DNA of 64,000 bases from a virus. Taxonomy: Duplodnaviria; Caudoviricetes. The stretch covers positions 1 to 64,000 of IMG/VR virus record IMGVR_UViG_3300013121_000038, one strand, 5' to 3'. The stretch's first letter is position 1, and each line of letters begins with the position of its first letter. Below, piece by piece: positions 33,034 to 53,782 of the stretch. Under the pieces are notes generated by a model, which was not told the DNA's origin, searched no databases, and was given only the letters and a program-made list of their open reading frames with translations. Made by a program: the position numbers and the translations under genes.

Positions 33034-34836
33034 ATGGAAGTTCTTGCGTACGACACCTATCGCCGCCTCAGCTCCAACGTCGTCATCTCCGAGAGCGGGC
33101 AACCAGAGCTTCGTGAAGAGTGGGACTACGAGGTCGAGCCGGAAGACGACTTCCTCGGCGACGAGGAGCTACAGAGACGTCAGTCGAAGCTCATCGGAGT
33201 GGCGCCGTCTCAGTTCGTGGAGTTCGCCATTCGGATGCCGGACAAGGAGCTCCAGAAGCACGTCCCATTCACCTTCAAACGGCGCGAGTACCTGAAGCTG
33301 CCGTACGACACGCCGGCCAAGCGGACCCTCTACAAGTGCGGTCGCCAGGTCGAGAAGAGCACGCTGCTCGGCAACAAGACGCTGGCCTACTGCTGCATCG
33401 TCAACGCCTTCAACGTCCTCTACGTCTCCCCGACCAACCAGCAGACCAAGGTCTTCTCGACCGACCGTCTCAAGGAGCCGATGGAGACATCGGAGGTCTT
33501 GAAAGCCTGGACCACCTCCAAGCTCTCGGACAACGTCTTCCTCAAGAAGTTCATCAACCGCAGCCAGGTGACGCTGCGCTACGCCTACCACAACGCCGAC
33601 CGCACCCGTGGTATCCCAGCCGACCTCGTCCTCATCGACGAGCTCCAGGACGTCATCACCGACAACATCCCGGTGATCGAGGAGTGCGCTTCGCACTCCC
33701 ACTACAAGCTCTTCATCTACTCCGGTACGCCGAAGACCACCGACAACGCCATCGAGCACTACTGGTCGAACTTCTCCACGCAGAACGAGTGGGTGGTTCC
33801 CTGCGAGCGCCACGGTCTGCCGAAGGATCCCAGCACCTGGTTCTGGAACATCCTCGGCGAGGACAACATCGACGTCGGCGCCGACGGTCCGGTCTGCGCC
33901 AAGTGCCGGCAGCGCATCGAGCCCATGCACCCGCATTCGCAGTGGGCCTCGATGAACGAGAGCGTGAAGCAGAAGCTCAAGGAGTACTACGAGGGCTACC
34001 GCATCCCTCAGCTCATGGTGCCGTGGCTCACCTGGCACGACATCCTCGACAAGTACGTCAAGTTCCCGCGCAGCGTCTTCTACAACGAGGTGCTCGGTCT
34101 CTCGTACGACTCCGGCACGCGTCCGCTCACGCGTCAGGACATCATCGACAACTGCGTCACTGGCGCCTTCATGGACACGACCGGGCTGGCGCAGGTGAAG
34201 GCCAAGCTCGGGATGGCGTCTCCGGTCTACGCCGGCATCGACTGGGGCACAGGCGAGGGTAGCTACACCGTCTTCTCCCTGGGCGCCTACATCAACGACT
34301 TCTTCACCATCTTCTACATCCACCGCTTCGAGGGGCAGGAGATCGAGCCGCCCATCCAGCTCGCGCTCATCGAACAGCTCATCAAGTACTGGGACGTGAA
34401 GCTGGTGGGCTGCGACTACGGCGGCGGCTTCGACCGCAACGACGCCCTGGCACGCACCTTCGGCAAGAACCGCATCGTGCGGTACCAGTACAGCCAGCCA
34501 GGCGTGAAGGTGAAGTGGGAGGACGGCCTCTCCCGCTACCTAGTCCACCGCACTGAGGTGATGAGCGACGTCTTCAACGCCATCAAGCGGCGTGACGTCA
34601 TGCGGTTCCCTGACTTCCAGCAGTTCGAGGATCCATTCGCCAAGGACATGCTGGCGATCTTCTCGGAGTACTCGGAGACGCAGCGCCAGGTGCAGTACAA
34701 GCACGCTCCAGACTCCACCGACGACTCCTTCCACTCCATCCTCTACTGCTTCCTCGCCTCCATGATCCGCCACCCGCGCTTCGACGTCCTCAACCCGACG
34801 CAGAAGACCGGGTACGCGACTCCGGAAGAGGTCTAA
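33034..34836 (+). CDS. terL: Terminase large subunit (GpA-like)
   Basis: KCGRQVEKST (Walker A-like), VLIDELQD (Walker B), SGTP, FYNEVLG, AGIDWG nuclease, DDSFHS. Confidence 0.9.
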   Translation: MEVLAYDTYRRLSSNVVISESGQPELREEWDYEVEPEDDFLGDEELQRRQSKLIGVAPSQFVEFAIRMPDKELQKHVPFTFKRREYLKLPYDTPAKRTLYKCGRQVEKSTLLGNKTLAYCCIVNAFNVLYVSPTNQQTKVFSTDRLKEPMETSEVLKAWTTSKLSDNVFLKKFINRSQVTLRYAYHNADRTRGIPADLVLIDELQDVITDNIPVIEECASHSHYKLFIYSGTPKTTDNAIEHYWSNFSTQNEWVVPCERHGLPKDPSTWFWNILGEDNIDVGADGPVCAKCRQRIEPMHPHSQWASMNESVKQKLKEYYEGYRIPQLMVPWLTWHDILDKYVKFPRSVFYNEVLGLSYDSGTRPLTRQDIIDNCVTGAFMDTTGLAQVKAKLGMASPVYAGIDWGTGEGSYTVFSLGAYINDFFTIFYIHRFEGQEIEPPIQLALIEQLIKYWDVKLVGCDYGGGFDRNDALARTFGKNRIVRYQYSQPGVKVKWEDGLSRYLVHRTEVMSDVFNAIKRRDVMRFPDFQQFEDPFAKDMLAIFSEYSETQRQVQYKHAPDSTDDSFHSILYCFLASMIRHPRFDVLNPTQKTGYATPEEV

Positions 34837-36082: not shown

Positions 36083-37027
36083 ATGGCCGATGATCTCTCT
36101 CGTTTCCTCACCTCCGGCGGCGGGCGCCATGCTTCTCTCACGCCCGAGCGGCTGGAGCTCATGGGGAAGGAAGCCGCGACGCTTCTCGTAGAGAAGGGTG
36201 TGCCTCTCAACGAGAGCATCTCGAAGCTCGCCGGCGCAGAAGCCGACATCAACGCCGAACAGGTGAAGAGGGTGGTGGAGTTCGCCAACACCGCCGCCTA
36301 TCTCGCCATGCACGACAAGAACAAGATGGCCGGCGAGGAGTCGAGCTACCCCCAGTTCGAGCTGGCTGACACCAACCGGATCCTCGGAGACCTCTCCGAC
36401 GGCTCCCGCCCAACCCAGATCACCCAGACGGACCTCTCCTACGGCCGCGCGCCGGAGAAGAGGAAGATCTCCAGCCCGAAGCTGGAGGCCGCTCTGGAAG
36501 AGCTCTTCCTCGGCCCGGCCGGGACGGAGAAGCGGGCCAGCCTGGACTTCACTCCGGAAACCGTCACCGACCACATCATGACGACGAAGCAGAACCTCGT
36601 CTCCATGCGCTCCCACCTGGAGTCCTCGGGCGAGCAGCTCGACCTTCTCCGGAAGGAAGCGGATGCCGAGTACTACGACGCCGTGAAGCGTCATCTTCTG
36701 GACGGCGGCAGCTTCGTGGACGTGGTGCGCGGCGCCGCAGAGGTCTTCGACGACTACGACCTCATGAAGGAGGCCATGGTTCCGTACGTCGCGCGCCTCT
36801 TCAAGGAGAAGGTCGCGCAGCCAGAGGCCCTCTTCCACCAGCTCCAGAGCCTGGAGAAGGTGGCCCACCGAGAGGTCCACAAGGACCACCCATTCGTGGC
36901 TGGTCTCGGCGCCATCGTCGCGCTCGACGAGGAGATCACCAAGGTGGCGTCGGCCCTCGGCGAGGTGGATGCCAGCCTCGCCCGGGTGAAGACCGCCATC
37001 CGGGAGGAGTTCCTTGCTCGTCCGTGA
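36083..37027 (+). CDS. Putative prohead core protein
   Basis: 314 aa, helical; EKRAS, EKVAH, TKVASA; first gene of the head operon. Confidence 0.7.
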   Translation: MADDLSRFLTSGGGRHASLTPERLELMGKEAATLLVEKGVPLNESISKLAGAEADINAEQVKRVVEFANTAAYLAMHDKNKMAGEESSYPQFELADTNRILGDLSDGSRPTQITQTDLSYGRAPEKRKISSPKLEAALEELFLGPAGTEKRASLDFTPETVTDHIMTTKQNLVSMRSHLESSGEQLDLLRKEADAEYYDAVKRHLLDGGSFVDVVRGAAEVFDDYDLMKEAMVPYVARLFKEKVAQPEALFHQLQSLEKVAHREVHKDHPFVAGLGAIVALDEEITKVASALGEVDASLARVKTAIREEFLARP

Positions 37028-38030
37028 GCTGAGCAAGCACGCCGCTGCCTCGGCTCGCCTCAGGGCCCAGGCCCAGGGGATGGAGAAGGACGCGGCACTC
37101 GGGAAGTTCATCGGCGCGACGGTCGGGACTGGCCTCAAGGCCGCCGGCCGTTTCGCCGCTGATTCTCTTGCTCACCCCATCGCGAAGGGACTTCCGCGAG
37201 TCGGCGCCGCGCTAGGGCTCGCGGGCGTCGTGAACAAGGGCCGGGCGCTCTACCACGGCTTCAACGAGAACGCTCAGCGAGCCATGCTCGGTCTCGGTGC
37301 GCCCAAGACGACTCTTGCCTCGGTGAACGACATGAACCTGCCAGAGCTGATGAAGACGGCTTCTGCCGCCGATCCGGAGTCGATGAAGAAGATCGCGGCC
37401 TGCATCGACCTTCTGGAGCACTACGAGCCGGAGGCCGTGTCAGAGCTGACCGCCGACTTCCGTGCCTACGCCGAGCACGTCAACGGGAAGATGAAGACGG
37501 CGGCATCCGCCACCGACTCGTGGGCGCAGAAGGCGTGGGGTGGCACCAAGGAGATCGGAGTCGGCGCCGCCAAGACCCTGGCCGGATCTCTCCTCGTCGG
37601 CATGGGTCTCGCCGCATCGACCGATCTCCTTCGGATGGCGAAGACCAAGCTGACCGAGAGCCGGAACTTCAAGCGGATGATGGACGCCAACAGCAACCTG
37701 CGCAGCAAGTCGCCGGCGGAGCTGCGGCAGGCGTTCAAGTCCTTGCAGAAGTTCGCGCCGGATGTCGCCTCCGATCCGCTCGCAGCCGGGTCGATGGTGT
37801 GGCACCTCACGAGCTCTCTCGAAGGCGACCACTACAAGCCGCTGCGTGAGGCCGTGACGCTCCAGAAGGAGATGGCGCGTCGCTCCTTCCTGCCGGAGCC
37901 GAAGATCGACTTCGGTCTCAGCGACAAGAACAACCGGCCGCCTCGTCATCAGCAGCAGGCTCCTGGCACAGCCAGCGGCGCCGCCCCGTACAACCTGCCG
38001 AACTCCTCTACGTCGAAGACGCATCCGTGA
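37014..38030 (+). CDS. Putative internal head protein with hydrophobic segments
   Basis: 338 aa; MEKDAA, MKTASA and MKTAASA precede Gly/Ala-rich segments. Confidence 0.7.
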   Translation: MLVRELSKHAAASARLRAQAQGMEKDAALGKFIGATVGTGLKAAGRFAADSLAHPIAKGLPRVGAALGLAGVVNKGRALYHGFNENAQRAMLGLGAPKTTLASVNDMNLPELMKTASAADPESMKKIAACIDLLEHYEPEAVSELTADFRAYAEHVNGKMKTAASATDSWAQKAWGGTKEIGVGAAKTLAGSLLVGMGLAASTDLLRMAKTKLTESRNFKRMMDANSNLRSKSPAELRQAFKSLQKFAPDVASDPLAAGSMVWHLTSSLEGDHYKPLREAVTLQKEMARRSFLPEPKIDFGLSDKNNRPPRHQQQAPGTASGAAPYNLPNSSTSKTHP

Positions 38031-39721
38031 TCGAGAAGGAAGTCATCTTCTTCGGCCATACCGAGGCCGGCATCTTCGCGCAGGCGCTTTTCCCCACGCG
38101 GATGGAGAAGTACGCCGGCGCGGTGCTCGACTCATGGGACACGGCGCCCAGCATCAGGAAGTTCATCCAGACGCTGACGCCGAATGACCGGGAGCAGAAC
38201 GCCTACGTCTTGGTGAACGCTCTCGGCGCCGGCGAGTTCTTCGGCCCCAACATCAACGCCGACTACTTCCCGTGGGACTCGCTCGCTCATGAGGGCGACG
38301 ACTACGGCTACAAGACCTTCTACAACGCTCACGCCTTCCAGCACCACGCGAACAAGGACACCGCACGCGCGTTCGGGGTTCCTGTCGTTTCCGTCCTGAA
38401 TCCGCGCATGAAGCGCGTCGAGCTCATCATCAAGCTCGACCGCGCGGCGGCGCGCGCCCAGGGCGCCGACGGCATCATCACCCGCATCGACAACGGCGAG
38501 TTCCCAGACGTCTCGATGGGATGCAAGGTCCCGTACGACGTCTGCTCGATCTGCGCCCACCGCTCGAAGACGCGGAACGACTACTGCCAGCACATGCGGC
38601 CGCCGGAAGAGCTCCGGCACATCTACGGCCCGAACAAGATCCTGCCGGATGGTCGCAAGATCTACGTCATCAACACCATCCCCCGCTTCTTCGACATCTC
38701 CTTCGTCTTCATCGGCGCCGACAAGACGGCCAAGGTGATGGCGAAGCTGGCCTCCAATGGTGCGCATGTCTGCCTGGGTGAAGTGTGTGCGATACCTGCC
38801 GGAGCAGGAGCGACTGGGCCTCAACTGTATGGACCCAGCGGCAACCCTCTCGATGTTCGAGACCTTCACAAGGTCGCCTCCGCCTGCGACGACCGGACCG
38901 GGCCATGTGGCCGCCGATGCGCTGACTGCTCCGAGCGAGACGCCTGCGAAGAGGAGAAGCTCGCTTCCGCCTTCCATGTGAAGTCGGCCGGCAAGAAGAT
39001 TGCCGAGATCGTGAAGGACGTCCCAGCCGGTGTCTTCTCGATGAAGCGCCTGCCGGAGATGGAGAAGCGGGAGCCTGACATCTCCCGGGAGGACCTCGAC
39101 CGGATGTCTGAGCGTCCTCTTGCGTCATCCCTCGGCGCCGCCGCGCGGATGGGGATCGTCCTCAAGCCCCACGAATTCCAGAGGGTTGTGCTCAAGCGGA
39201 TGGGAGAAGATGCGCTGATCTCCCACCTCGACAAGCACCACCACGTCTTCCGCGAGGTGCCGGACGCCGGCGAGAGCCTCTCCTGCGACGTCCGCGACCC
39301 GCTCGACGAAGTCTTCGACCTCTTGAAGAAGTACATCCGGTCACGTACCGCTCTTGGACCGTCTTTCCAGATGCGGGTGATGGTGGTCGGGAAGTCGAAA
39401 AATGTCCTTCCCACTAGAACCCCAATCGGCAACTCTCTTCTCGACAAGGTGAGCGCCGCGTACAACAGCTACCGGCGTGGAGTTCTGGAGAAGGTCTCGC
39501 AGGTGATCGAAGAAGTGAAGAGCGACCCAAGGTTGGCGGAAGCGGTTCTCGGAGACGGACTCAGCATGATGTTCAAGACGGCCAGCTCCGAGATCCTCTT
39601 TCCCGACTCGGTGAAGTACATGTTGGGCGCTCATCTGCAAGATCGTGGTCTGCTGTGCAAGTCGGCCGCTGGCGCGGTCGTTCTCGATGACTCGGTCTTT
39701 TCGGAGACCAACTCGGCCTAG
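38027..39721 (+). CDS. Prohead maturation protease (HK97/assemblin-like) with Cys-rich inserts
   Basis: FQHH, DVSMGC..PYDVCSIC...CQH, FFDISFVFIGAD; lies upstream of scaffold and capsid genes. Confidence 0.75.
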   Translation: MIEKEVIFFGHTEAGIFAQALFPTRMEKYAGAVLDSWDTAPSIRKFIQTLTPNDREQNAYVLVNALGAGEFFGPNINADYFPWDSLAHEGDDYGYKTFYNAHAFQHHANKDTARAFGVPVVSVLNPRMKRVELIIKLDRAAARAQGADGIITRIDNGEFPDVSMGCKVPYDVCSICAHRSKTRNDYCQHMRPPEELRHIYGPNKILPDGRKIYVINTIPRFFDISFVFIGADKTAKVMAKLASNGAHVCLGEVCAIPAGAGATGPQLYGPSGNPLDVRDLHKVASACDDRTGPCGRRCADCSERDACEEEKLASAFHVKSAGKKIAEIVKDVPAGVFSMKRLPEMEKREPDISREDLDRMSERPLASSLGAAARMGIVLKPHEFQRVVLKRMGEDALISHLDKHHHVFREVPDAGESLSCDVRDPLDEVFDLLKKYIRSRTALGPSFQMRVMVVGKSKNVLPTRTPIGNSLLDKVSAAYNSYRRGVLEKVSQVIEEVKSDPRLAEAVLGDGLSMMFKTASSEILFPDSVKYMLGAHLQDRGLLCKSAAGAVVLDDSVFSETNSA

Positions 39722-39781: not shown

Positions 39782-40579
39782 ATGCCGATGGATCCACAGC
39801 TCGCTGCCATCTACGGGACCAACCAGGACGAGAGCGACGTCGAGAAGCTCGCCGCCGCCGAGCTCGCCGAGGAGCTCGCAGACGAGGGCGAGGAGGTCGA
39901 GGAGTCCGACCTCTCCGACGAGGAGGCCGAGGAGCTCGCCCAGCAGCTTCTCGCCGCCGAGGGCGAGGAGGGCGCGGAGCAGGGTGACGAGGAGGACGAG
40001 GAGGGCGCCGCCGTCGAGGAGCCGGGCGAGGAGGAGCAGGAGAAGCTCTCCGAGGCCGACTACCTGGGCCGCGTCATGGCCCACGCCTACACCCAGGAGC
40101 TCCGCAAGATCGCCGCCGTCGGCGACTCCAGCGCCTACGAGGGCAAGGACACCGCGTCCCGCGCCCAGAAGGTCGGCGGCTGGGCTCGTCGTCAGGGCCA
40201 CCGTGCTGCCGGCGCCGCCAAGGCCTTCGGCAAGCACTTCAAGGGCGGCGACAAGTGGTCCCTGAAGGGCCAGCACGCCGGCAAGACCTGGGGTGCTCGC
40301 GCCGCCGTCGGTGCGGCTGCCGGTGCTGCCGGCTACGGCGCCTACCGGAAGTTCAAGGGCAAGGGCAAGAAGAAGCAGTCCGCCGCCGAGCCGTCGGCCC
40401 TCGACATCCTCGCCGAGCGCCGCGCGCTGGAGATCCTGGCCGAGAACGGCATCGACCCGACCCAGGAGCAGGAGAAGACCAGCGCCTCCGAGCCCGAGAT
40501 GGAGGCCCTCGGCAACGCCGTCGAGCAGCGGGCGTACGCGCTGCTCCAGGCCAACGGCTACATCCAGGAGCAGGAGTAG
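39782..40579 (+). CDS. Acidic scaffold-like protein carrying a basic Gly/Ala cassette
   Basis: E-rich ends; YTQELRKIAA ... KKQSAA flank a cationic segment. Confidence 0.7.
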   Translation: MPMDPQLAAIYGTNQDESDVEKLAAAELAEELADEGEEVEESDLSDEEAEELAQQLLAAEGEEGAEQGDEEDEEGAAVEEPGEEEQEKLSEADYLGRVMAHAYTQELRKIAAVGDSSAYEGKDTASRAQKVGGWARRQGHRAAGAAKAFGKHFKGGDKWSLKGQHAGKTWGARAAVGAAAGAAGYGAYRKFKGKGKKKQSAAEPSALDILAERRALEILAENGIDPTQEQEKTSASEPEMEALGNAVEQRAYALLQANGYIQEQE

Positions 40580-41033: not shown

Positions 41034-42599
41034 ATGAAGACCAAGCTCGCCGGTCACCTGCCACTCCAGGACGCCATCGCGCGGACCATCGAGGAGGCGC
41101 GCGAGAAGATGAAGCTCGCCTCCGATGCCTGCGAGGGGGAGGACAAGGAGAAGGTGAAGAAGCTGGTGAAGTTCGAGAAGAAGGAGCACGGCCACATCCC
41201 CTCCGAGAAGGAGGAGCGGGCCGAGTACGAGAAGAAGAGCTCCATCATCGACACCGACGACCCGGAGGAGGTGGAGAAGCTGGCCGCCTCGCTCGACTTC
41301 CTCGCCGAGAAGATCGCCGGCGACTCCGTCACCATCGGCGGCGAGTCGCGTCAGGGCGGCCAGGTCCTCGCGACCATGAACGCCGTCGGCGGCACCCAGC
41401 CCTACAAGAAGGACTCGTCCAAGAGCCACAACGTGCCGACGTCGACCGGCATGAAGTCGACGAAGGACAACCCAGGCGCGTCCACCGCCGTCCCCACGGA
41501 CGACGAGCGGGCCCCTGGCGGCACCGGGGCCAAGTACCCCGCCAAGGGCGTCCTCAAGACCGGCGGCGTGAAGAAGACGGCCATGGACTACCACCAGGCC
41601 CGCGCGGTCGGCCAGGCCGTCGGCCTCGGCACCCATCTCGTGGGCGGCGCCATCGGCTACCAGAAGGGCAAGGAGCAGCACGCCCGAGGCGAGAAGCACA
41701 CCTTCGGGGTGCCGCAGGGCGCGGCCGCCCTCTTCCTCCCAGGCGGCGCCGGCTACCAGCTCGGCCGCTACATGGGCCACAACGCGGCCGGCGGCGAGAA
41801 GAAGAAGGGGAAGAAGAAGCACAGCTCCGTCGAGCGGCTCCAGCTCGCGCTGGCAGCCCAGACCGGCATCGTCACCCCGGAGATGGCTGCCGACATGGAG
41901 AAGGACGCCGGCAAGGTCACCGACGCCCTGAAGTCCATGGGCGGCAAGGCGCGCGCCGCCGGCGGCCGCGTCATGGAGCTCCTCAAGGGCGGGAAGTTCG
42001 GCGCTGGCAACCGCGCCAGCAACTACCGGCCTGGTGCGAGAGGCACCATCCCTTCGAGCGAGGCGTGGAAGTCGCTCGGGACTCGTGCTGCGGCCGGAAC
42101 GGCTGCCGTCGTCGGCGGGAAGAAGGCCTACGACAAGCTGAAGAAGAAGGGCAAGAAGAAGGCCGCCGGCGTCGAGGCCGTCGACTACATCCTCTCCAAG
42201 ATCAGCGCCGTCGAGAACGGTGGCGAGAGCCCGCAGGGTGGTGAGCAGCTCAGCAACACCGCCCCGGTGCCCTCCAACGCCGGCCGTGAGCTCATCCGGA
42301 ACAAGGACGGCATCAAGAACGTGACCAAGGCCCAGGCCAAGTCCCCTCGCAAGAAGGAGCTGGCCGAGGTCCTGACCGAGCCTGCCATGAGCGCGGCTCA
42401 CGACTCCAAGGTCAACGAGAACCTGCGGAACGCCGCGAAGGGCGGCGTGAAGATCGCAGCGGCACGGGTGTTCCTCCAGAAGATCGCTTCGGAGGGCTGC
42501 CAGTGCTCTGGCGCCGGCAAGTGCCGGTTCTGCCAGATGCAGGAGAAGGCTGCCGCACTTCGCGGCAACGGAGCCGAGGCCGTCGCCTCGGAGGCATGA
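41034..42599 (+). CDS. Modular head/scaffold polyprotein
   Basis: 521 aa; more than 10 K-x-[AS] motifs, internal GGES.QGG repeat, C-terminal CQC...CRFC. Confidence 0.75.
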   Translation: MKTKLAGHLPLQDAIARTIEEAREKMKLASDACEGEDKEKVKKLVKFEKKEHGHIPSEKEERAEYEKKSSIIDTDDPEEVEKLAASLDFLAEKIAGDSVTIGGESRQGGQVLATMNAVGGTQPYKKDSSKSHNVPTSTGMKSTKDNPGASTAVPTDDERAPGGTGAKYPAKGVLKTGGVKKTAMDYHQARAVGQAVGLGTHLVGGAIGYQKGKEQHARGEKHTFGVPQGAAALFLPGGAGYQLGRYMGHNAAGGEKKKGKKKHSSVERLQLALAAQTGIVTPEMAADMEKDAGKVTDALKSMGGKARAAGGRVMELLKGGKFGAGNRASNYRPGARGTIPSSEAWKSLGTRAAAGTAAVVGGKKAYDKLKKKGKKKAAGVEAVDYILSKISAVENGGESPQGGEQLSNTAPVPSNAGRELIRNKDGIKNVTKAQAKSPRKKELAEVLTEPAMSAAHDSKVNENLRNAAKGGVKIAAARVFLQKIASEGCQCSGAGKCRFCQMQEKAAALRGNGAEAVASEA

Positions 42600-42609
42600 G
42601 GAGCTGACG

Positions 42610-43005
42610 ATGCCCGACAAGATCAGCAACGTCCAGGTCGCCCAGCTCCAGAAGCTGGCGAGCACCACCCTCCGGAAGCTGGCGGGGGAGAACAAGACGC
42701 TCCGCGACGAGAACGGTGACCTGAAGACCAAGGTCGCCGCCTTCGAGAAGAGGGCTCGCGCGGAGAAGATCGCGTCCGAGATGGAGTCCAAGGGGCTCAA
42801 CCTCGGATCCACCTTCGAGCAGAAGGTGGCAGAGCTGCTGGAGAACGACCGACTCGACGTCGTCGAGGAGGCCGTCGGTCTGGCGGCGCCGCAGATCAAG
42901 CTCGCCTCCGTCCACGAGGACGGCGTCGAGGTGGAGAGCACGGGAGACGACGCCGCCGACAGGGCGACGCAGGTCTTCGCAGCAGGGCTCGCCTCCCTCG
43001 GCTGA
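42610..43005 (+). CDS. Coiled-coil scaffold-like protein
   Basis: 131 aa; QKLAS, EKIAS, IKLAS. Confidence 0.7.
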   Translation: MPDKISNVQVAQLQKLASTTLRKLAGENKTLRDENGDLKTKVAAFEKRARAEKIASEMESKGLNLGSTFEQKVAELLENDRLDVVEEAVGLAAPQIKLASVHEDGVEVESTGDDAADRATQVFAAGLASLG

Positions 43006-43058
43006 GGAACTTCAACCCCACGCTGTAGATCGACACACCCTTCAAGGAGAACACCAAG

Positions 43059-43541
43059 ATGTCCGCACCCAACTTCGAGCTGATCACGGAGCTCCAGGTC
43101 ACCCTCCGCAGGGACTTCCCGCTGGCGGTGCCTGGCATCCTCAACCCCATGGACGCTCAGCCCCTCGTCGAGGGCGAGTGGCTGGAGCTGGACGCCAACT
43201 ACCTGCTGAAGCGCGGCAGCGTCGCTGGCGGCGGCGTGAACGGGGCAGTCTTCCCGGTCCACACCGAGCGCGGTCGGTACGACACGCAGGCGGTCCAGAA
43301 GGCCAACGTCATCTTCGCCGGCCAGTACGAGGCCGAGACGAAGATCTTCGACACCGGCGGGACGTACAACCCCGGCACCGAGCTGATGGTCGACGACGTG
43401 ACCATCGGCGGCATCGTCCGGCGCGGCCTCAAGCCGGCCACGGCGGGCCACATCGTCGTCGGCCACGTCTCCAAGCTCACCGGCTCCGGCGCGTCGGCGA
43501 AGCTCCGCTTCATCCACGGCGCCAACTACATGAAGGCCTAA
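43059..43541 (+). CDS. Probable capsid decoration/cement protein
   Basis: 160 aa, beta-rich, immediately upstream of the MCP. Confidence 0.6.
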   Translation: MSAPNFELITELQVTLRRDFPLAVPGILNPMDAQPLVEGEWLELDANYLLKRGSVAGGGVNGAVFPVHTERGRYDTQAVQKANVIFAGQYEAETKIFDTGGTYNPGTELMVDDVTIGGIVRRGLKPATAGHIVVGHVSKLTGSGASAKLRFIHGANYMKA

Positions 43542-43575
43542 GGCCTAGGCCGACACGAAAGGAACGGAGAAAACC

Positions 43576-44715
43576 ATGAGCGTGCCAGCCAAGGTCCTGA
43601 ACGACCTGTTCTTCGAGAAGGTCGCCACCCAGGAGGGCAAGGACAAGATCGCCGAGTTCGGCGGGACGTACATCCGCGACCGACTCCGCGAGGTCTCCTT
43701 CGCCCGCAAGGTCCTCCCCCCGCAGCCCGTCCAGCGGTCCGAGTGCCAGCGGTCCGTCAACCACGACACCCTGGTCAAGATCGTCGACATCGAGCCCAAC
43801 TCGAAGGCGATGGCCATGGGCTTCCGTGGCCAGCCCACGGCGCGCTTCATCCGCGCGCCGCGCTACGAGATCCCCTTCTTCACGATCTCGTCCGAGAAGT
43901 TCGAGAAGACGGAGCAGGAGCTCCTCGCCTACGAGATGCCCATCACCAAGATCATCGAGGAGAACTCGGTGAAGGACATCCAGAGCATCGAGGACCGCCA
44001 GTTCCTGCTCTTCATCGAGGCCGCCGTCCAGGGCTTCCAGACCGACGCGAACGGAGGGGCCACGGCGTTCAACCACACGAACGTCAACGCCGGCTCCGTG
44101 AAGTCGGCCTCCGTGGTGAAGGGTGAGGGCGCCCTCACCGCCACGACCGAGGACTTCACCGTCTACCCCGTCCTCAAGACGGACTTCATCAAGATGAAGA
44201 AGCTCCTGCACCGCCGGCACCTCCGCGCGGAGCGGATGCTTCTCACCGAGCCGGACTACGACGACATCTCGTCGTGGACCATCCAGGACGTCGGCATGAC
44301 GATCGCCGGCGAGACCTCCACCGAGGGCTGGAAGAGCGACACGGTGGTGGGCCTGAAGATCATCCGCACCATCAAGACCGAGATCCTCCGCGAGGGCAAC
44401 ATCTACTGCTTCACCGCGCCGGAGTTCTGCGGCCGCTTCTACGTCCTCAACCAGACCAAGTTCTACATCGACAAGATCGCGAACCTGATCACCTGGCAGT
44501 CGTGGGAGGACATCGCGATCGGCATCGGCAACATCTCGTCGATCGTGAAGATGGAGCTCTACCCCGGCTCCGTCACGCCTGGTGAGGAGACCGCCATCGG
44601 CGGCGGCATCGACTACCGCGCGGCCCTGCCCGTGGACGAGCTCGACCCGCTCCTCGCCCCGACCAACAACAAGGTCGACCAGGGCCTGAAGTACCCGAAC
44701 GTCTCCCAGTTCTAG
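43576..44715 (+). CDS. Major capsid protein (HK97 fold)
   Basis: 379 aa, extreme codon bias, IRDRLREVSFARKVLPP, KDIQSIEDRQFL; position in head operon; followed by a strong hairpin. Confidence 0.8.
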   Translation: MSVPAKVLNDLFFEKVATQEGKDKIAEFGGTYIRDRLREVSFARKVLPPQPVQRSECQRSVNHDTLVKIVDIEPNSKAMAMGFRGQPTARFIRAPRYEIPFFTISSEKFEKTEQELLAYEMPITKIIEENSVKDIQSIEDRQFLLFIEAAVQGFQTDANGGATAFNHTNVNAGSVKSASVVKGEGALTATTEDFTVYPVLKTDFIKMKKLLHRRHLRAERMLLTEPDYDDISSWTIQDVGMTIAGETSTEGWKSDTVVGLKIIRTIKTEILREGNIYCFTAPEFCGRFYVLNQTKFYIDKIANLITWQSWEDIAIGIGNISSIVKMELYPGSVTPGEETAIGGGIDYRAALPVDELDPLLAPTNNKVDQGLKYPNVSQF

Positions 44716-44735
44716 CCATCCGGCCGGGGACAACG

Positions 44736-44779
44736 TGAGGGGAGGAGGAGCCACAACTCCTCCTCCCCTCATCGCTTTC
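44736..44779 (+). terminator. Terminator after the MCP gene
   Basis: Perfect 15-bp stem TGAGGGGAGGAGGAG/CTCCTCCTCCCCTCA, then TCGCTTT. Confidence 0.7.
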
Positions 44780-44798
44780 CAGGGGGTAGGATGCCGCC

Positions 44799-45095
44799 AT
44801 GAAGGTCTTCAACCTGACCAACCACCCGCTCGACTTCCACGGCCGGGTCATCGCGCCGAACGGCGGCAGCCTGGACTACCCAGAGCTCGACGCCTTCCTG
44901 CCGTCGCGTGACAAGAAGCTGGAGGAGCTCCGCTACATCGCCTTCGGCTTCCTCCCGACCTGGTGGAAGAAGCAGCAGGAGAAGAAGCCACAGGTGCCGC
45001 ACAAGCGCGTGACCCTCAAGCTCTCGGACGACGTGAAGGTCTTCGACAGCGTCTCGACCAGGACTTCCAGGCACGGGAAGAAGTACCAGGGGTGA
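44799..45095 (+). CDS. Hypothetical protein
   Basis: 98 aa, in operon. Confidence 0.65.
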   Translation: MKVFNLTNHPLDFHGRVIAPNGGSLDYPELDAFLPSRDKKLEELRYIAFGFLPTWWKKQQEKKPQVPHKRVTLKLSDDVKVFDSVSTRTSRHGKKYQG

Positions 45096-45098
45096 GGC

Positions 45099-45317
45099 AT
45101 GGCGACCGAATCAGCCATCATCCGGATGAGGAAGATCCTGGAGAGCAAGGGCATCTCTCAAGACCTGCTGAAGGACACCCTGATGGTGTACGGCCGTGAC
45201 TGGCTGCGGGAAGTAGAGGGTGACGTGGTCGGGGAGGAGGCCCTGGCGGCGCGCCGCACCAAGGCGTTCCGGATGGTCGCTGACTCCTGCCCTGACCTCT
45301 TCCCGCTCAAGGACTGA
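45099..45317 (+). CDS. Hypothetical protein
   Basis: 72 aa, TGATG overlap with the next gene. Confidence 0.6.
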   Translation: MATESAIIRMRKILESKGISQDLLKDTLMVYGRDWLREVEGDVVGEEALAARRTKAFRMVADSCPDLFPLKD

Positions 45318-45865
45318 TGATGGCCGACGACCTCGGATACGGCGCAGCAGGCACCAACCTCCCGGCTCCGTCCATGGAGTCGGCTGAGGGCGTGGTGCTG
45401 CCGGCGGCGCCGACGGAGCTCAACGACTTCGTCAACCAGGTCCGGCTCTTCATGCGGGACTACTCGGAGCTGAACCGCCTCATCGCCGGGGAAGAATCCT
45501 CGAACCGCCAGATCATGTGGGCCGTCTTGGACGCCCTCGACGATTTCAACACAGACCCGCCCTTCACCCGCTTCAACCTGAACAGCTTCCCGTCTCGCAG
45601 CCTGCTGCTACGGCTCACCGTCATCTCGCTGCTGGAGTCGATCGGCCTCCTCCAGACGCGCAACCATCTCCAGTTCTCGGACGGAGGCATCCAGGTCGGC
45701 ATCAACGACAAGACGCCATTCCTCCAGTCCTGGATCCAGCTCTTCCGTTCTCGCTCCGACCAGAAGAGCCAGCGGCTCAAGGTCGCCTACAACATCGAGG
45801 CAGCCTGGGGCGGCGGCATCCACAGCGAGTACCGCTTCGTGAACAACTTCTACGGAGAATGGTGA
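45317..45865 (+). CDS. Probable head-tail adaptor
   Basis: 182 aa helical protein after the MCP; positional inference. Confidence 0.55.
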   Translation: MMADDLGYGAAGTNLPAPSMESAEGVVLPAAPTELNDFVNQVRLFMRDYSELNRLIAGEESSNRQIMWAVLDALDDFNTDPPFTRFNLNSFPSRSLLLRLTVISLLESIGLLQTRNHLQFSDGGIQVGINDKTPFLQSWIQLFRSRSDQKSQRLKVAYNIEAAWGGGIHSEYRFVNNFYGEW

Positions 45866-46443
45866 TGCGGCCCAACATCGACTCCTTCTTCGACGAGCTG
45901 CTGAACGTCTCGGAAGAGCTCACCAAGCAGTCGAATGCCCCTGTCCCTACCCCGAAGAAGGTTGGGCTTTCTGGCAAGGGCGCTCTCATCGGTGGCGCTC
46001 TCGGCGCCGGCCTGGGCGGAATCCGCGCCATCGGCCGAGAGACGCACGAGCGTGCGGCTGATGACCGTGCCGGCCTGACCGACGAGCAGAAGAAGGTCCT
46101 GAGGAAGAAGCGTCTCGCCGGTCACGCAGCCAACATCCTGGCCTGGAGCGGCGCAGGCTCTGGCATCGGTAGCCTGGAGCGCAAGGCGCGCGGTGTCGTC
46201 GGCGAGGCCGGAGAGAAGGTGTGGGATTCCATCGACTACGCCCGCGCGCACGCAGACGAGGTCGTCGCGGATGCTCGCAAGCACGCGGACCAGGTCGTCG
46301 CCGACGCCCATGCCCGCGCCAACCAGACTGTTCACGACGCGCCGAAGAACTTCGTCAAGGGCATCGGTCACGCTGCGGCAAACGCCGGAAAGCGAGTCGG
46401 TCGCGGCATCAAGTCCATCTTCACCAGGAAGCCGAAGGTGTAA
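45865..46443 (+). CDS. Tagged (FFDELLNVS) Gly-zipper protein
   Basis: Start MRPNIDSFFDEL at 45865; GALIGGALGAGLGG; tandem HAD[EQ]VVADA repeat. Confidence 0.7.
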   Translation: MRPNIDSFFDELLNVSEELTKQSNAPVPTPKKVGLSGKGALIGGALGAGLGGIRAIGRETHERAADDRAGLTDEQKKVLRKKRLAGHAANILAWSGAGSGIGSLERKARGVVGEAGEKVWDSIDYARAHADEVVADARKHADQVVADAHARANQTVHDAPKNFVKGIGHAAANAGKRVGRGIKSIFTRKPKV

Positions 46444-46452
46444 GGAGCCAGC

Positions 46453-46593
46453 ATGGCCATCGCAGCGTTCAAGGTCGCCGAGTTCAGCACCGCCCTGGAT
46501 CTCCAGAAGTTCGTGGCGACTGGGGCGCCCGTCGTTGTCGTCTCCATCGTCTTCAACGGCGCCAGCGGCAAGTACGTCCTGTTCTACACCTAG
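46453..46593 (+). CDS. 46-aa protein
   Basis: Hand-translated MAIAAFKVAEFSTALDLQKFVATGAPVVVVSIVFNGASGKYVLFYT; TAAGGAG RBS. Confidence 0.65.
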   Translation: MAIAAFKVAEFSTALDLQKFVATGAPVVVVSIVFNGASGKYVLFYT

Positions 46594-46606
46594 CCAGGGA
46601 GCGGCC

Positions 46607-47233
46607 GTGGACGACCTCACCTTCTATCAGGCGCTGCGCGGTCCAAGGGCCGAAGGCGGCGAGGCATGTCTGCGCTCCCTCATGAAGAAGACTGCCCAGA
46701 CAACGCCGGTCAAGAAGCCGATCTCCGTCCAGGACACTCATGCCATATCCAACGACATCCAGGCTCGGATGGCGGAGGTCGTGAAGAGGCTGAAGGCGAT
46801 CAAAGCCGGCAAGATCAAGAAGGGCTCGGCCGAGGAAGCGAAGAAGCAGGTCCTCGACCGACTCAAGGCTCATGCTCCTGAGCTCATCGGCGGCGGTGTC
46901 GGAACCGTGGCGGGTGGTCTGTACGGTTATCTTGCGTCCCGCCGCAAGGATCCGAAGAAGCCGTCGGCCATGGAAGAGGACGCCGCCAAGATGCTGCGGG
47001 CGTACGAACGTGCCGAGCAGGAGATGAAGGAAGAGGGCAAGAAGCCAGGCTTCCCGCACAAGATGCGTGGTGTCTACGCCCGTGCCTTCGCCGACGCCTC
47101 GAAGGTGATGAAGGAGCATCCAGTCGCCACCGGCGCGATGTATGGCGGCGCCGCTGGTTCGGCCGGGGCAGGGCTCGGTCGTATCGCCTACGACCTCTAC
47201 AACAGCAGAATCGGAAAGGGCCTCGACGTATGA
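46607..47233 (+). CDS. Gly-zipper protein
   Basis: GTG start at 46607; LIGGGVGTVAGGLYG and GAMYGGAAGSAGAGLG. Confidence 0.65.
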   Translation: MDDLTFYQALRGPRAEGGEACLRSLMKKTAQTTPVKKPISVQDTHAISNDIQARMAEVVKRLKAIKAGKIKKGSAEEAKKQVLDRLKAHAPELIGGGVGTVAGGLYGYLASRRKDPKKPSAMEEDAAKMLRAYERAEQEMKEEGKKPGFPHKMRGVYARAFADASKVMKEHPVATGAMYGGAAGSAGAGLGRIAYDLYNSRIGKGLDV

Positions 47234-48477
47234 ACCACGAAGCTCAACTCGCCAAGACCCTCGGAGACGACGAGCAGGAGAAGCTCGCGTCCCACTTTGC
47301 TTCCTACACCGTCGACGAGCTCGCGTCTCTCCTGAAGGAGAAGACTGCGCTCGCTCCGATGCCTGCTCCTGCGGCGACCCAGGGCGATCTCATGCGTGAG
47401 CGCACCAAGGGCGGGCGGATGATCAACACGCTGAAGAATACCTTCAAGCCGCCAGTGCTGGCGTCGGTGAAGATCGCCGACGAATGGGGCCGGCAGCTAG
47501 CGAACGAGGACATCGAGAAGAACGCCTTCATGGATCAGGCGCTCGGCCTCGCCGTCGGTCATCACTATGGCAAGGAGCAGAAGAAGCGTGGCGAGAACTA
47601 CAGCTTCGGAGTTCCGCAGGGCGCCGCTGCTCTCTTCCTGCCTGGGGGAGCCGGCTACCAGATCGGCCGCTACATCGGCCACAACGACAAGAGCGTGAAG
47701 AAGGGCAAGAAGAAGAAGGCCAGCGCCCAGCTCGTCTACGAAGCGCTCATGGAGAAGATCTCTACCGGCGCCGTCGGCAACCTCGGCGGCCAGATGCCGA
47801 GCCTCACACCGAAGATGCCGACTGCTCCCAAGGTCGGCGCCGGCAACATGATGCCGCGAATCGGAACGGTCGGAGGTGGCGGGCTCGGCAAGACCGTGAC
47901 GGGCGCGGCCAGGCTGCGCGCGGAAATGGACAAGGTGGCCTTCTGGGGCTCCGGCACCATCGCCAAGGGCATCAACTGGGCCGCCCCTCATCTCGCCAAG
48001 GCCACCAGCGCCCTCGCGTCGGCTGGGCCAGGCAAGTCCGCTCTCATCGGCGCCGGCGTGGGTGCTGCCGGCGGTGCCGCGCGGCACGCGCTGTCGGGCA
48101 GAGACCCCCAGACGGGGCAGAAGCGCACCACCCTGCTAGGTTCCATGGCCGGCGGCGCCGCTCTCGGTGGCGCGGCTGGCGCTGGTCTCAGTGCAGGAGC
48201 CAGCCGCTTCCAGGGCTCTGCGCTGCATGGGCGCATGACCAGCGGCAACTTCAAGTTCAACACCCAGCCTCCGGCTGCGGCCGCAGGAGCAGCCGGCGCC
48301 GCCGGGCCGACGCCTGTCGCGCAGCCGGCGCCAGTCGGTCCAGGCGGACTGCGTCCGAATCCAGAAGGCGCTCCGGCACACTGGCGAAACGCTCCGCCTC
48401 CGCCGGCTGCTGGTCCTCAGGCAGCCGGTCCACAGCCAACGCCAGTGAAGAAGGGCTGGTTCGGGCTCGGCAGGTAG
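47230..48477 (+). CDS. Modular Gly-zipper polyprotein
   Basis: 415 aa; EKLAS, EKTA, VKIA, EKNA, KKAS, EKIS and DKVA separate distinct modules. Confidence 0.75.
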   Translation: MNHEAQLAKTLGDDEQEKLASHFASYTVDELASLLKEKTALAPMPAPAATQGDLMRERTKGGRMINTLKNTFKPPVLASVKIADEWGRQLANEDIEKNAFMDQALGLAVGHHYGKEQKKRGENYSFGVPQGAAALFLPGGAGYQIGRYIGHNDKSVKKGKKKKASAQLVYEALMEKISTGAVGNLGGQMPSLTPKMPTAPKVGAGNMMPRIGTVGGGGLGKTVTGAARLRAEMDKVAFWGSGTIAKGINWAAPHLAKATSALASAGPGKSALIGAGVGAAGGAARHALSGRDPQTGQKRTTLLGSMAGGAALGGAAGAGLSAGASRFQGSALHGRMTSGNFKFNTQPPAAAAGAAGAAGPTPVAQPAPVGPGGLRPNPEGAPAHWRNAPPPPAAGPQAAGPQPTPVKKGWFGLGR

Positions 48478-50458: not shown

Positions 50459-53400
50459 ATGGCCAACGCTGCTGCGGAGCTTGCTCAGCCAGGCGTGAAG
50501 GTTCTCCAGTCGATCAGGAAGACGTCGCCGACCTTCCTGCGGCCGACGCTCGCTCCAGTCGTGGTCGGTCCTGCCTTCGAGATCATCGAGGCGCTGACCG
50601 CCGACGGCACGCTGAACGCGAAGGCCAAGTACGGCGCCTACGCTCAGCTCGGGAAGACGATCTCGCAGTCGTCCTTCCCGGACCCGCGCGGCAACGTGGA
50701 CGAGCTGGACGTGCTGGAGGAGACCATCAAGGCCTACCTCTTCACGGCTGGCCGGCTCACCGAGCTGCCGATGTCGCCTGGCGACTCGTTCCTGCTCGCA
50801 TCGCACAAGGCGTCGACGGCGGTCTTCAAGGTCACCGGCAACAACTTCGCCGTCCAGGGCAAGAACATCATCCTGGCGGTGGACCAGCCTGTCGCTGCTG
50901 ACACCACCGAGGACGTCACCGTCGCCTTCACCGGCGGCAGCCCGTACACCGCTGCCGAGGTGGTGGCTGCCATCAACACCGCCTTCGGCTTCGAGCTGGC
51001 GGTGGTCACGAAGGACGGTGCCGGAGCCGTGACCGGCTTCGAGCTCATCTCCCCGACCACCGGCGCGCTCAGCTCCCTCACCGTGCGCGGCGGCGGCACG
51101 GCCAACGAGGATCTCGGTCTCGGCTTCGCCGCCGCCGTGAAGGTGCAGGAGCGCATCGAGGCTTCCGGCTTCCGCGCCTTCGACCTCTCGAACAACGCTA
51201 CCGTCTCCACCTGGGTGGAGTTCGCCCGTGGCGAGTACTGGACCGGGGCCGTCGCGTCCGGCGCCAGCGCCTGGCCAGCCAAGGCCGCGCGCCGTCCTCT
51301 CACCGGCGCTGACGTCGCCGGGCGAGACGTGCAGGTGCAGTTCGGCACCGGCGCGGGCCAGATCCCAGTGGTCCCAGGCGACCAGATCGTCGCCGACGGC
51401 ATCGTGGTGAAGAACGGCGAGATCGCCCGAGTCGAGTCCGAGAAGATCAAGATCGGCACCGTGAACACGCTGCTGTCTTCGGTCGACTCCGACGGCAACT
51501 ACACCAACAAGGTGTACGACGACGTGGCGCTCGGGCTGCTCCTCGATCCCAACTCTCCCTTCTCGCCGAAGTACGTCTGGTTCAAGGCGAACGGGCTCTC
51601 GCCGAACGCGGCTGCCACGGCAGCGAAGATGGTCGGCACAGCCACCGCGCAGGCCGCCACGAAGCCGACGGTCACCGGCCAGGCAGATGCGACGCCGGAC
51701 GTCTTCCAGGGCCTGGGCTTCGACTACACGCTGACCAGCGGCGGCGTGACCGAGACCAAGCACCTGACCTTCGCCCAGGCGGACGCCTTCGCGACCGTCC
51801 AGGAGATCGCGGACTACATCAACGCGAACACCAACGACATCGCCGTCACCCTCTCCGGCAACAAGCTGGTCTTCGAGGGCCCGGACGCCGGCGCTGACAA
51901 GAGCATCGGCATCCTCGACTCCGGCAGCGCCAACACCGGCCTCGGCATCACCGCCGCGCTCTCGGACACCGGCACCGATCCGGAGTTCGCCAACCTCCCG
52001 AGCACGACGCTGAAGTTCTCCTTCGACGACAGCGACCACGTCTACGACGTCTCGTTCACCGACAAGAGCCTCACGCAGGCCATCGACCGCATCAACTCGC
52101 TGGTGGGCGTCACGGTGGCCTCCAACGTCGGCGACCAGCTCGTCCTCACGTCGCAGCTCAGCGGCGTGGCGTCTCGCGTGAAGGTCGTCGAGGGCTCGGC
52201 CATGACCGAGCTCGGCTTCACCGCCGGCCAGACCTCGGACGACGCTGGCGGGACCAAGGGCACCGGCCGTCCGAGCCCGAACGCCTACCTCGACGGCGCC
52301 AACAACCTGGTGATCGGGCCACAGCTCGTCCGGGACCCGGTCACCGGCGCGCCGCTCGACTTCATGACGAGCTCGGCCAGCCTCTACATCCAGTACAAGG
52401 GCCTGCGCCGGGACGTCTCCCCAGCGGCCAAGGTCGCGGGAGTACTGCGCCTTCCAGGCGTGGACACCCTCTCGCAGGTCCTCGACCCAGTCGACGCGCG
52501 CAACCCGCTGGCGCTCGGCATGTACCTGGCGATGCTCAACGCCCCCAACTTCGAGGTGAAGGGTCTGGGCGTCGACGAGGTGAGCGCCGCTGCTCCAGAG
52601 GGCACGGAGCTGGCCTACGCTCGCGCGGCCGCCATGCTGGAGGCCGAAGAGGTCTACGCCATCGCCCCGCTCAGCCAGAACGAGGTGGTCCACCAGACCT
52701 TCATCACCCACGCCACGGTGATGTCCGAGCCCGAGCAGGCCGGCGAGCGCATCGTCTTCTTCAACAAGAAGACCCCGACCACCCAGTCGCCGACGGCGGC
52801 TGCCAACGGCGTGGGCGCGAAGGCGACGGCGACGGCGAACCAGCTCATCCTCGACGTCACTCCTCAGCAGGGCCTGGTGGATGCTGGCGTGAACCCTGCG
52901 CTGCCTCTCTCGGCCGCCACTGGCGTCTACATCGAGTTCAACTGGAAGGGCGTCTTCTACCGCTACAACGTGTCGAGCGTGAACGGCGGTCGTGCCGATC
53001 TTCGCGTCTCGTTCGGCGCCGGCGAGAACGACGACTTCTTCTACTCGACCGTCACCATGCCCACCGACGTGCTCGACGCCGCGTGGTCCATGAAGGTGCG
53101 CGGCGCCTCGGTCGTCATCCCAGGCTCCAACCCTCCCAAGACCGACTACTCCCTCGTCGCCGACACGGTGTCCGAGGCCAACGGTGGCGTGGGCAACCGG
53201 CGCGCCTTCTCGGTCTTCCCCGACACGGTCAAGACCACGCTGGCCGGCATCGAGGTCGAGATCCCTGGCTACTACGCCTGCGCGGCTGCCGCCGGCATGG
53301 TGGCTGGCCTGCCTCCGCAGCAGGGCTTCACCAACTACCCCATCACCGGCCTCACGGGCGTCTCCGGCACCGAGAAGTTCACCCGGAAGCAGCTCAACAA

Positions 53401-53782
53401 GATGGCCGGTGGCGGCACCTACATCCTCATGCAGGAGGTGCAGGGTGGTCCGGTCTTCAGCCGGCACCAGCTCTCCACCGACGTGAGCCAGGTCGAGGTC
53501 CGAGAGCTCTCGGTCACCAAGGTGGTGGACTTCGTCGCGAAGTTCCTCCGCGCCGGCCTCCGCCGCTTCATCGGCCGCCAGAACATCAACGCCGTCTTCC
53601 TCGACTCGGTCGGTACCACGATCCAGGGCATGCTCCAGTTCCTCACCGAGAACGGCATCATCAACGGGGCCAACCTCAACAACATCATCCAGGACCCGAG
53701 TGCGCCTGACACCGTCATGGTCGACGTGACCCTCGACGTGCCGTTCCCCTGCAACTACATCCGCCTGACCCTCGTGGTCTGA
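50459..53782 (+). CDS. Contractile tail sheath protein (with insertions)
   Basis: N-terminal QPGVKV...VVVGPAF; C-terminal RHQLSTD...RELSVTKVVDFVAKFLR...FIGR.NI...PFPCNYIRLTLVV. Confidence 0.88.
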   Translation: MANAAAELAQPGVKVLQSIRKTSPTFLRPTLAPVVVGPAFEIIEALTADGTLNAKAKYGAYAQLGKTISQSSFPDPRGNVDELDVLEETIKAYLFTAGRLTELPMSPGDSFLLASHKASTAVFKVTGNNFAVQGKNIILAVDQPVAADTTEDVTVAFTGGSPYTAAEVVAAINTAFGFELAVVTKDGAGAVTGFELISPTTGALSSLTVRGGGTANEDLGLGFAAAVKVQERIEASGFRAFDLSNNATVSTWVEFARGEYWTGAVASGASAWPAKAARRPLTGADVAGRDVQVQFGTGAGQIPVVPGDQIVADGIVVKNGEIARVESEKIKIGTVNTLLSSVDSDGNYTNKVYDDVALGLLLDPNSPFSPKYVWFKANGLSPNAAATAAKMVGTATAQAATKPTVTGQADATPDVFQGLGFDYTLTSGGVTETKHLTFAQADAFATVQEIADYINANTNDIAVTLSGNKLVFEGPDAGADKSIGILDSGSANTGLGITAALSDTGTDPEFANLPSTTLKFSFDDSDHVYDVSFTDKSLTQAIDRINSLVGVTVASNVGDQLVLTSQLSGVASRVKVVEGSAMTELGFTAGQTSDDAGGTKGTGRPSPNAYLDGANNLVIGPQLVRDPVTGAPLDFMTSSASLYIQYKGLRRDVSPAAKVAGVLRLPGVDTLSQVLDPVDARNPLALGMYLAMLNAPNFEVKGLGVDEVSAAAPEGTELAYARAAAMLEAEEVYAIAPLSQNEVVHQTFITHATVMSEPEQAGERIVFFNKKTPTTQSPTAAANGVGAKATATANQLILDVTPQQGLVDAGVNPALPLSAATGVYIEFNWKGVFYRYNVSSVNGGRADLRVSFGAGENDDFFYSTVTMPTDVLDAAWSMKVRGASVVIPGSNPPKTDYSLVADTVSEANGGVGNRRAFSVFPDTVKTTLAGIEVEIPGYYACAAAAGMVAGLPPQQGFTNYPITGLTGVSGTEKFTRKQLNKMAGGGTYILMQEVQGGPVFSRHQLSTDVSQVEVRELSVTKVVDFVAKFLRAGLRRFIGRQNINAVFLDSVGTTIQGMLQFLTENGIINGANLNNIIQDPSAPDTVMVDVTLDVPFPCNYIRLTLVV

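Follow-up and report, generated by a model that had tools for sequence, protein, structure and literature searches.

Exchange of a conserved cassette among capsid-region genes of uncultured phages at K-x-[A/S/G] sites, and its possible release by a head protease

Two copies of one cassette in otherwise unrelated genes

The sequence examined here (the window) covers the first 64 kb of IMG/VR virus record IMGVR_UViG_3300013121_000038, which is 102 kb long (Caudoviricetes; completeness by CheckV, ∼55%), and has a GC content of ∼63%. Two of its genes share a short cassette, a conserved mobile module composed of a predicted helical domain of ∼55 residues and a lysine-rich tail. Gene A (positions 41034 to 42599; the + strand carries this gene, the genes of the order given below and the ORF at 9317 to 10492) encodes 521 amino acids (aa) arranged as a conserved N domain (aa 1 to 177), a hypervariable modular middle (aa 178 to ∼380) and a conserved C domain. 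It is located between genes for a candidate prohead protease (38027 to 39721; 564 aa) and a scaffold-like protein (42610 to 43005; 131 aa), the latter followed by the major capsid protein (MCP; 43576 to 44715), and thus lies within the head-morphogenesis module. Gene B (47230 to 48477; 415 aa) is found between the MCP and tail sheath genes. In its product, a conserved N terminus of ∼40 aa and a W-G-R-x-L-A module precede the cassette, and the remainder is rich in Gly/Ala and Pro. The original prediction, made from the letters of the window, had called both carriers head genes. The position of gene A agrees with this, while gene B is only presumed to be a head gene; with the MCP on one side and the tail sheath on the other, its head location is less certain.

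Composition-corrected BLASTP of the gene A product against that of gene B identified one significant segment, spanning aa 203 to 250 of gene A (41640 to 41783) and aa 105 to 152 of gene B (47542 to 47685). This core has 35 of 48 identical residues, 42 positives and no gaps (E value, 6e−21). The second-best segment had an E value of 1.6, leaving only 48 residues aligned out of 521 and 415. Whole-gene paralogy, named beforehand as an outcome that would refute the idea of a cassette, was not seen; the similarity is confined to this discrete core and the flanks are unrelated. The positions predicted for the two copies were exact, with nucleotides 41667 and 47569 corresponding to G212 of gene A and G114 of gene B, and a K-x-A tripeptide precedes each copy as claimed (K181-T-A183 in gene A, 41574 to 41582, and K97-N-A99 in gene B). 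After each copy, a lysine run closes in K-x-S or K-A-S. The cassette is present only twice in the 102-kb record, and all-against-all BLASTP of the window proteins identified, besides the cassette, one marginal pair of tail genes.

At the DNA level the two cores are 78% identical, with 31 differences distributed over codon positions 1, 2 and 3 as 9, 3 and 19. Using the Nei-Gojobori method across all 48 codons, the proportions of synonymous (pS) and nonsynonymous (pN) differences were 0.39 and 0.16, giving a dN/dS of 0.33 (Fisher P = 0.008). The 39 best codons gave a dN/dS of 0.22 with a dS of ∼0.52 (Fisher P = 0.002). The differences had been described as largely synonymous, which overstates the raw counts, as only about half are synonymous; the per-site rates do show purifying selection. 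Both cassette copies are old and under purifying selection. Cassette B is 82, 78 and 75% identical to its counterparts in gene B orthologues from other phages and 65% identical to cassette A, whose nearest relative (70%) is the cassette of an unrelated 174-aa protein. Since dS is ∼0.5 and cassette B is nearer to the cassettes of its orthologues, gene B was not a recent donor to gene A. By these identities cassette B looks ancestral to the gene B family, and cassette A looks like a separate acquisition.

The wider gene order includes a large terminase (33034 to 34836; phrog_675) upstream of the protease candidate, several small genes filling the interval between MCP and gene B, and the tail sheath (50459 to 53782; phrog_279). 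The MCP (phrog_2522) is 30% identical to that of Salmonella phage Arash, and by sequence comparison the phage belongs to a clade of large uncultured phages that are distant relatives of Arash. No match to gene A, gene B or the cassette was identified among 50,697 cultured-phage records. Arash is a 180-kb orphan myovirus with RNA polymerase subunits inside its virions (PMC10585845), and the window encodes a candidate large RNA polymerase as a single open reading frame (ORF) of 2,115 aa (18209 to 24556) among the structural genes.

A mobile domain family and its boundaries

A phmmer search with the 81-aa gene A unit against 1.84 billion representative proteins identified 53 clusters at an E value of ≤1e−3, 17 of them at ≤1e−10, and a profile of the cassette located 58 domains in 57 of the fetched proteins. 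Cassette-bearing proteins span 78 to 690 aa, with the match anywhere from the N to the C terminus. The consensus reads G-G-x-[IV]-G-[YH]-x-x-G-K-x-Q-K-x-R-G-E-x-[HY]-x-F-G-x-x-Q ... L-P-G-G-x-G-Y-Q-x-G-R-x-x-x-H. Among 23 sequences, 14 columns were invariant (numbered on the 81-aa unit: G21, G25, Q32, G36, E37, F41, Q45, P53, G54, G55, Y58, Q59, R62 and H66), which together with the dN/dS values upholds the predicted selection at the protein level. AlphaFold modeled the cassette as three helices with a mean predicted local distance difference test (pLDDT) score of 62.7, a model of low confidence. Y58, R62 and H66 share one face of the last predicted helix, and the presence of seven polar residues among the invariant ones points to a specific small fold. 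No match to the cassette was found in Pfam, even at E values up to 10, nor in PHROGs, PDB or the ESM Atlas, and on these searches it is a new, uncatalogued conserved domain. One metagenomic protein of 171 aa (P0169) is made up of two divergent tandem copies, each followed by a basic tail.

Glycines of the cassette form a GxxxGxxxG stripe (G204, G208 and G212 in gene A), and a second GxxxG lies in the last helix. Glycine-zipper membrane peptides include the Pfam Gly-zipper families and the two-peptide bacteriocins with GxxxG motifs; the cassette resembles them in its glycine stripe, second GxxxG and cationic tail, but differs in having no Pfam match and low hydropathy. A classical glycine-zipper transmembrane hairpin was rejected, even though the GxxxGxxxG pattern itself is present: the 19-residue Kyte-Doolittle maximum was 1.0 for cassette A and 0.73 for cassette B, below the usual transmembrane threshold of 1.6, and no Pfam Gly-zipper family matched at an E value of ≤10.

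The cassette was found in proteins of the gene A type, the gene B type, an M-N-D-W-L type, an M-P-F-x-S-x-Q-Q-R-R type and a type resembling the product of the ORF at 9317 to 10492, as well as in solo ORFs; by sequence, at least five of its carrier proteins are unrelated to each other. Stand-alone cassette ORFs encode 78 to 96 aa and lie on contigs of 84, 41 and 5 kb. For gene A, >230 metagenomic orthologues were identified, in which the middle region ranges from 15 to 253 aa and is made of recurring modules. Scanning the 120 orthologues listed for the motif F-G-[VIL]-P-Q-G detected the cassette in two; the profile raised this to ∼10, leaving ∼110 without it. In a tree of 58 gene A orthologues, built from the conserved domains only and including six carriers, six changes were needed to explain the six carriers, the same number as with shuffled labels. 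The nearest orthologue, P0002, is 93% identical to gene A over the conserved columns and has no cassette. Most gene B orthologues carry the cassette, while one lacks it and another has a different sequence in its place. The predicted gain and loss of the cassette among orthologues is therefore seen in both families. The window copy of the 9317 ORF, a third carrier family, is without the cassette, whereas its orthologue P0144 has it.

IMG/VR searches with gene A or gene B as single-protein queries found no relatives, and a search with the gene A alignment found 17 loci, none of which carries the cassette. With the cassette alignment as the query, IMG/VR gave a single further locus, and another came from metagenome contigs. 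L021, an IMG/VR relative with conserved synteny, carries the cassette in gene B and not in gene A. In L022, which is more distant (MCP 29% identical), a small ORF directly upstream of the protease gene ends in the cassette.

Other recurrent features were noted in the carrier families. Seven gene A orthologues (P0004, P0006, P0012, P0074, P0077, P0089 and P0099) have a second recurrent module in the variable region, once or twice per protein, with the sequence E-G-H-K-L-D-A ... Y-A-A-K-K-H-E-K-G-x-N-A-[YFW]-N-P-F-G-G ... K-E-K-K-S; it is absent from the window gene A. In the gene B family, a module of the form [LI]-A-[DE]-x-W-G-R-[EQ]-L-A ... E-K-x-A lies directly upstream of the cassette (47470 to 47526 in the window; aa 81 to 99), and also occurs apart from the cassette in P0130, P0136 and P0163. 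The gene A C domain contains a C-x-C-x5-C-x2-C motif (42498 to 42533; aa 489 to 500) that may bind zinc; across ten orthologues its first Cys is invariant and the other three are nearly so. A second Gly/Ala-rich segment followed by K-K-K-G-K-K-K or K-G-K-G-K-K-K is found in gene A (42033 to 42164; aa 334 to 377) and in the product of 39782 to 40579 (at 40271 to 40396), a likeness seen by eye that is below BLASTP significance.

The original prediction held that indels in orthologues should coincide with K-x-[AS] sites. Three clean presence/absence pairs from three gene families could be aligned, and in all three the indel is flanked on both sides by K-x-[A/S/G]. In pairwise alignment, gene A has an 87-aa insertion holding the cassette (G178 to S264; 41565 to 41825) relative to P0002. 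The two proteins are identical up to L-K-T-G, the insert starts G-V-K-K-T-A and ends in K262-H-S264 (41817 to 41825), and both then resume S-V-x-R-L-Q-L-A-L (S-V-E-R-L-Q in gene A). The gene B orthologues P0122 and P0124 differ by a 68-aa indel that extends exactly from after E-K-V-A to after K-L-S; in the window, the corresponding unit (F100 to S165; 47527 to 47724) is bounded by E-K-N-A (47515 to 47526) and K-A-S (47716 to 47724). In the third pair, P0144 has a cassette-holding insert of ∼137 aa between Q-M-K-T and A-K-T-A where the window 9317 ORF reads Q-M-K-T-A. Because each inserted unit comes with a downstream K-x-S/A of its own, a site is preserved at either flank.

Across the family, 26 of 58 domains have their nearest upstream K-x-[AS] 23 to 25 residues ahead of the R in R-G-E (7% expected). 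Downstream, 49 domains have a K-x-[AS], which in 47 of them lies within 5 to 24 residues, and the remaining 9 lack one. The bounded indels, the orthologue scatter, the discreteness of the module and its dN/dS values therefore support two parts of the original idea, namely, shuffling of the cassette at K-x-A-type boundaries and selection on its protein sequence. By these alignments, proteins of the capsid gene region exchange the module at K-x-[A/S/G] boundaries.

The K-x-A motif and the candidate head protease

K.A was the most overrepresented X.Z gapped tripeptide in the head set (85 occurrences versus 48 expected; z score, 5.9, in a set that included two ORFs picked because they carry the motif) and was not among the top X.Z patterns in the rest of the proteome. 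For K[TLIVM]A, z scores were 11.3 for the 9317 ORF, 7.6 for the scaffold-like protein, 6.5 for the ORF starting at 25736, 5.9 for that starting at 36083, 5.8 for the protease, 3.7 for the MCP, 3.5 for gene A and 2.8 for gene B. The scaffold-like protein has six K-[LIV]-A sites where 0.5 are expected. In the sheath, other tail proteins and the 2,115-aa ORF the motif was at or below expectation, the last having one site versus 3.8 expected. At 35 of 59 sites, the Ala is followed by S, A or G. The ORFs at 9317 to 10492 and 25736 to 28045, which lie outside the core head module, contain nine sites each (K-[LTV]-A in the former; K-[LTVI]-A over both) and have no Pfam or PHROG match; their products may be packaged proteins.

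The candidate protease matches phrog_18299, annotated as a head maturation protease (E value, 2e−8). Its catalytic part spans approximately aa 40 to 230, and H106, H107, S163 and D171 are invariant in 12 orthologues. All six of its K-[LITV]-A sites lie C terminal to this part (aa 233 to 519), and the string A-D-K-T-A-K-V-M-A-K-L-A directly after it is nearly invariant in the same 12 orthologues. The MCP has E-K-V-A-T and D-K-I-A-E inside its first 27 residues, and these are largely kept in 17 orthologues. Several cassette carriers start with M-x(0-3)-K-[TLI]-A, reminiscent of a short N-terminal propeptide.

Two proteins of Arash, the nearest cultured relative, both belonging to its head gene cluster, were also enriched in K-[TIV]-A. 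These are gp220, with 6 sites versus 0.8 expected (z score, 5.2; L020, 6512 to 7435), and gp225, with 4 sites versus 0.5 expected (z score, 5.4; L020, 10867 to 11469).

Possible release of the cassette and alternative explanations

The best explanation for these observations as a whole, which we hold to be somewhat on the probable side, is that of a mobile module inserted and lost at K-x-[A/S/G] and presumably freed by a protease. The module enters and leaves several unrelated proteins of the capsid gene region, and in gene A it forms part of a hypervariable array held by the conserved N and C carrier domains. The candidate prohead protease would recognize K-[LITV]-A where S, A or G comes next, and would excise the cassette as a free cationic peptide while the head matures. 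It is moderately probable that the K-x-[A/S/G] boundaries are protease sites from which the cassette is released as a peptide of ∼7 to 8 kDa with a net charge of +8. The predicted product of gene A (M184 to S264) has 81 aa, a mass of 8.4 kDa, a net charge of +8 and a pI of 10, and that of gene B (F100 to S165) has 66 aa, 7.1 kDa and a charge of +8. The peptide would stay with the DNA in the head and exit with it at infection. Charge neutralization or DNA binding, and action on the host envelope, are the two most likely readings of its putative role; the polar invariant stripe and basic tail favor a specific small fold with DNA or something else as its binding partner, and the glycine zipper keeps a membrane role possible.

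Several points weigh against release. Binomial P values for the boundary positions are overstated because the sequences are related and not independent. In the gene A variable region, BLAST segment starts fall near K-x-[AS] in 34% of cases versus 23% (standard deviation, 4%), a weak effect, and segment ends gave no signal. The upstream K-x-A keeps a constant spacing to the domain and is often contained within a longer F-x-D-E-L-x-K-I-A element, and could thus serve the module structurally or in docking instead of being a cut site; a literature search for the string E-L-E-K-I-A returned unrelated matches only. The makeup of the head set and the low confidence of the cassette model also count here. 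Finally, the protease assignment depends on the one remote PHROG match. Its N-domain AlphaFold model is poor (pLDDT, 52), Foldseek with this model found no PDB match at an E value of ≤0.001, and sequence and profile searches against the PDB were empty.

Some of these points lend themselves to ordinary domain shuffling without cleavage, in which a small folded domain stays covalently attached to its carrier and K-x-A is a helix-end, linker or docking motif that tolerates insertions. This alternative is possible but the less likely course. The fixed spacing would then indicate that the upstream K-x-A could belong to the domain; in many homologues the tripeptide is embedded in E-L-E-K-I-A, and the breakpoint test was weak. 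Arash gp220 has 96% peptide coverage in virions (PMC10585845), and no large piece of that protein is therefore lost. Set against this, the motif is concentrated in the scaffold-like protein, immediately C terminal to the catalytic domain of the protease and at the N terminus of the MCP, as in known prohead-protease motifs, and is not enriched in tail proteins or the candidate RNA polymerase. The inserted units bring their own downstream sites, and several carriers have the propeptide-like start, which are further points against an attached domain.

The cassette could instead be an address, that is, a domain docking to capsid, portal or DNA that recruits its carriers into the procapsid. Systems of this type include the basic helix-turn-helix of the P22 scaffold, the T4 capsid-targeting sequence and the cargo-loading peptides of encapsulins. 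Its occurrence in unrelated proteins of the capsid gene region, its predicted helices with a basic tail and the Y58, R62 and H66 stripe would fit such a role. This is nonetheless improbable, given that the cassette is missing from ∼110 of the 120 gene A orthologues, from some gene B orthologues and from the window 9317 ORF, and that stand-alone cassette ORFs have nothing to deliver. The conserved carrier domains are kept in all cassette-less orthologues, and the cassette is therefore dispensable for bringing these proteins into the particle. Because most gene A orthologues do without it, the cassette appears to be dispensable cargo and not an address. Least probable of all, despite the richness of both regions in Gly, Ala and Lys, is an origin of the similarity in chance or low complexity, in whole-gene paralogy, or in very recent intragenomic copying or gene conversion: chance is ruled out by the core E value and the 14 invariant, mostly non-Gly positions, paralogy by the unrelated flanks, and recent gene B-to-gene A copying by the dS and the orthologue identities.

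The proposed release can be set beside known systems. In T4, gp21 cuts the scaffold core protein gp22, gp67, gp68 and the internal proteins IPI to IPIII at (L/I)-x-E; some small peptides remain in the head, and the internal protein genes are hypervariable between T-even phages. As in T4, the window has a protease in the head module, a motif that is dense in scaffold or internal proteins, at the MCP N terminus and after the protease domain, and variable putative internal cargo adjoining conserved targeting parts. Unlike in T4, the motif is K-[LITV]-A-[S/A/G] and not x-x-E, with cuts that are predicted from sequence, the cargo would consist of module arrays within one ORF between conserved N and C domains, and the proteins share no sequence similarity with those of T4.

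In phiKZ and SPN3US the protease motif has the form A-x-E. Their head proteins are cut by gp175 and gp245, respectively, and propeptides are fragmented at several protease-motif sites (PMC10052503). The cleavage motifs of T4 and SPN3US show a distribution across head proteins (PMC10052503) like that of K-x-A here. Many head proteins with multiple motif copies, propeptides that would be cut into several fragments, and RNA polymerase as a component of Arash virions and as a candidate product among the structural genes of the window, are likenesses to the phiKZ/SPN3US system; the motif, phage lineage and capsid protein family are different. All identified cuts in SPN3US free N-terminal propeptides that are discarded (PMC10052503), whereas the product proposed here would be an internal, conserved and selected peptide.

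More distant parallels come from eukaryotic viruses, although the window virus, its protease and its sequences are unrelated to those of adenovirus. Herpesvirus assemblin cuts at (V/L/I)-x-A|S, and prohead proteases are reportedly homologous to the herpesvirus protease (Cheng et al. 2004). Serine proteases of the assemblin fold, which also include HK97 gp4 and T4 gp21, have a catalytic His and Ser together with a further His or Asp. The small residues at the presumed scissile bond, Ala followed by Ser, Ala or Gly, resemble the assemblin site, but a Lys two residues before the Ala is outside the herpesvirus consensus, and the window protease is only a candidate. In adenovirus, the basic core peptides pVII and pX (mu) are freed from precursors by the viral protease. 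If the release proposed here holds, basic peptides would likewise be made inside the capsid by a maturation protease, with DNA binding by the cassette only putative.

A broader and more doubtful reading extends the release model to a polymorphic payload system. Carrier domains (the gene A N and C domains and the gene B N terminus) would bring module arrays into the prohead, where the protease would separate them at K-[LITV]-A|[S/A/G], and the released peptides would be injected effectors. Modules would be swapped as site-delimited units between genes and between phages, like toxin cassettes in polymorphic toxin systems, and the cationic peptides would permeabilize the membrane, counter host defense or condense DNA.

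Most of what is known of head-protein proteolysis in phages comes from T4 and the phiKZ group, whose proteases cut after Glu and mostly remove disposable propeptides. If release of the cassette is correct, K-hydrophobic-Ala followed by a small residue would be a new candidate cleavage code. Liquid chromatography-tandem mass spectrometry data have been collected for Arash virions (PMC10585845), and given the K-[TIV]-A enrichment in gp220 and gp225, the code is therefore testable in a cultured phage, without culturing the phage of the window. The protease product would be a conserved, selected peptide domain with no catalogued relatives, carried by units that move between genes exactly at the candidate sites. 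Taken together, these features would reveal how the packaged and injected contents of phages are diversified.

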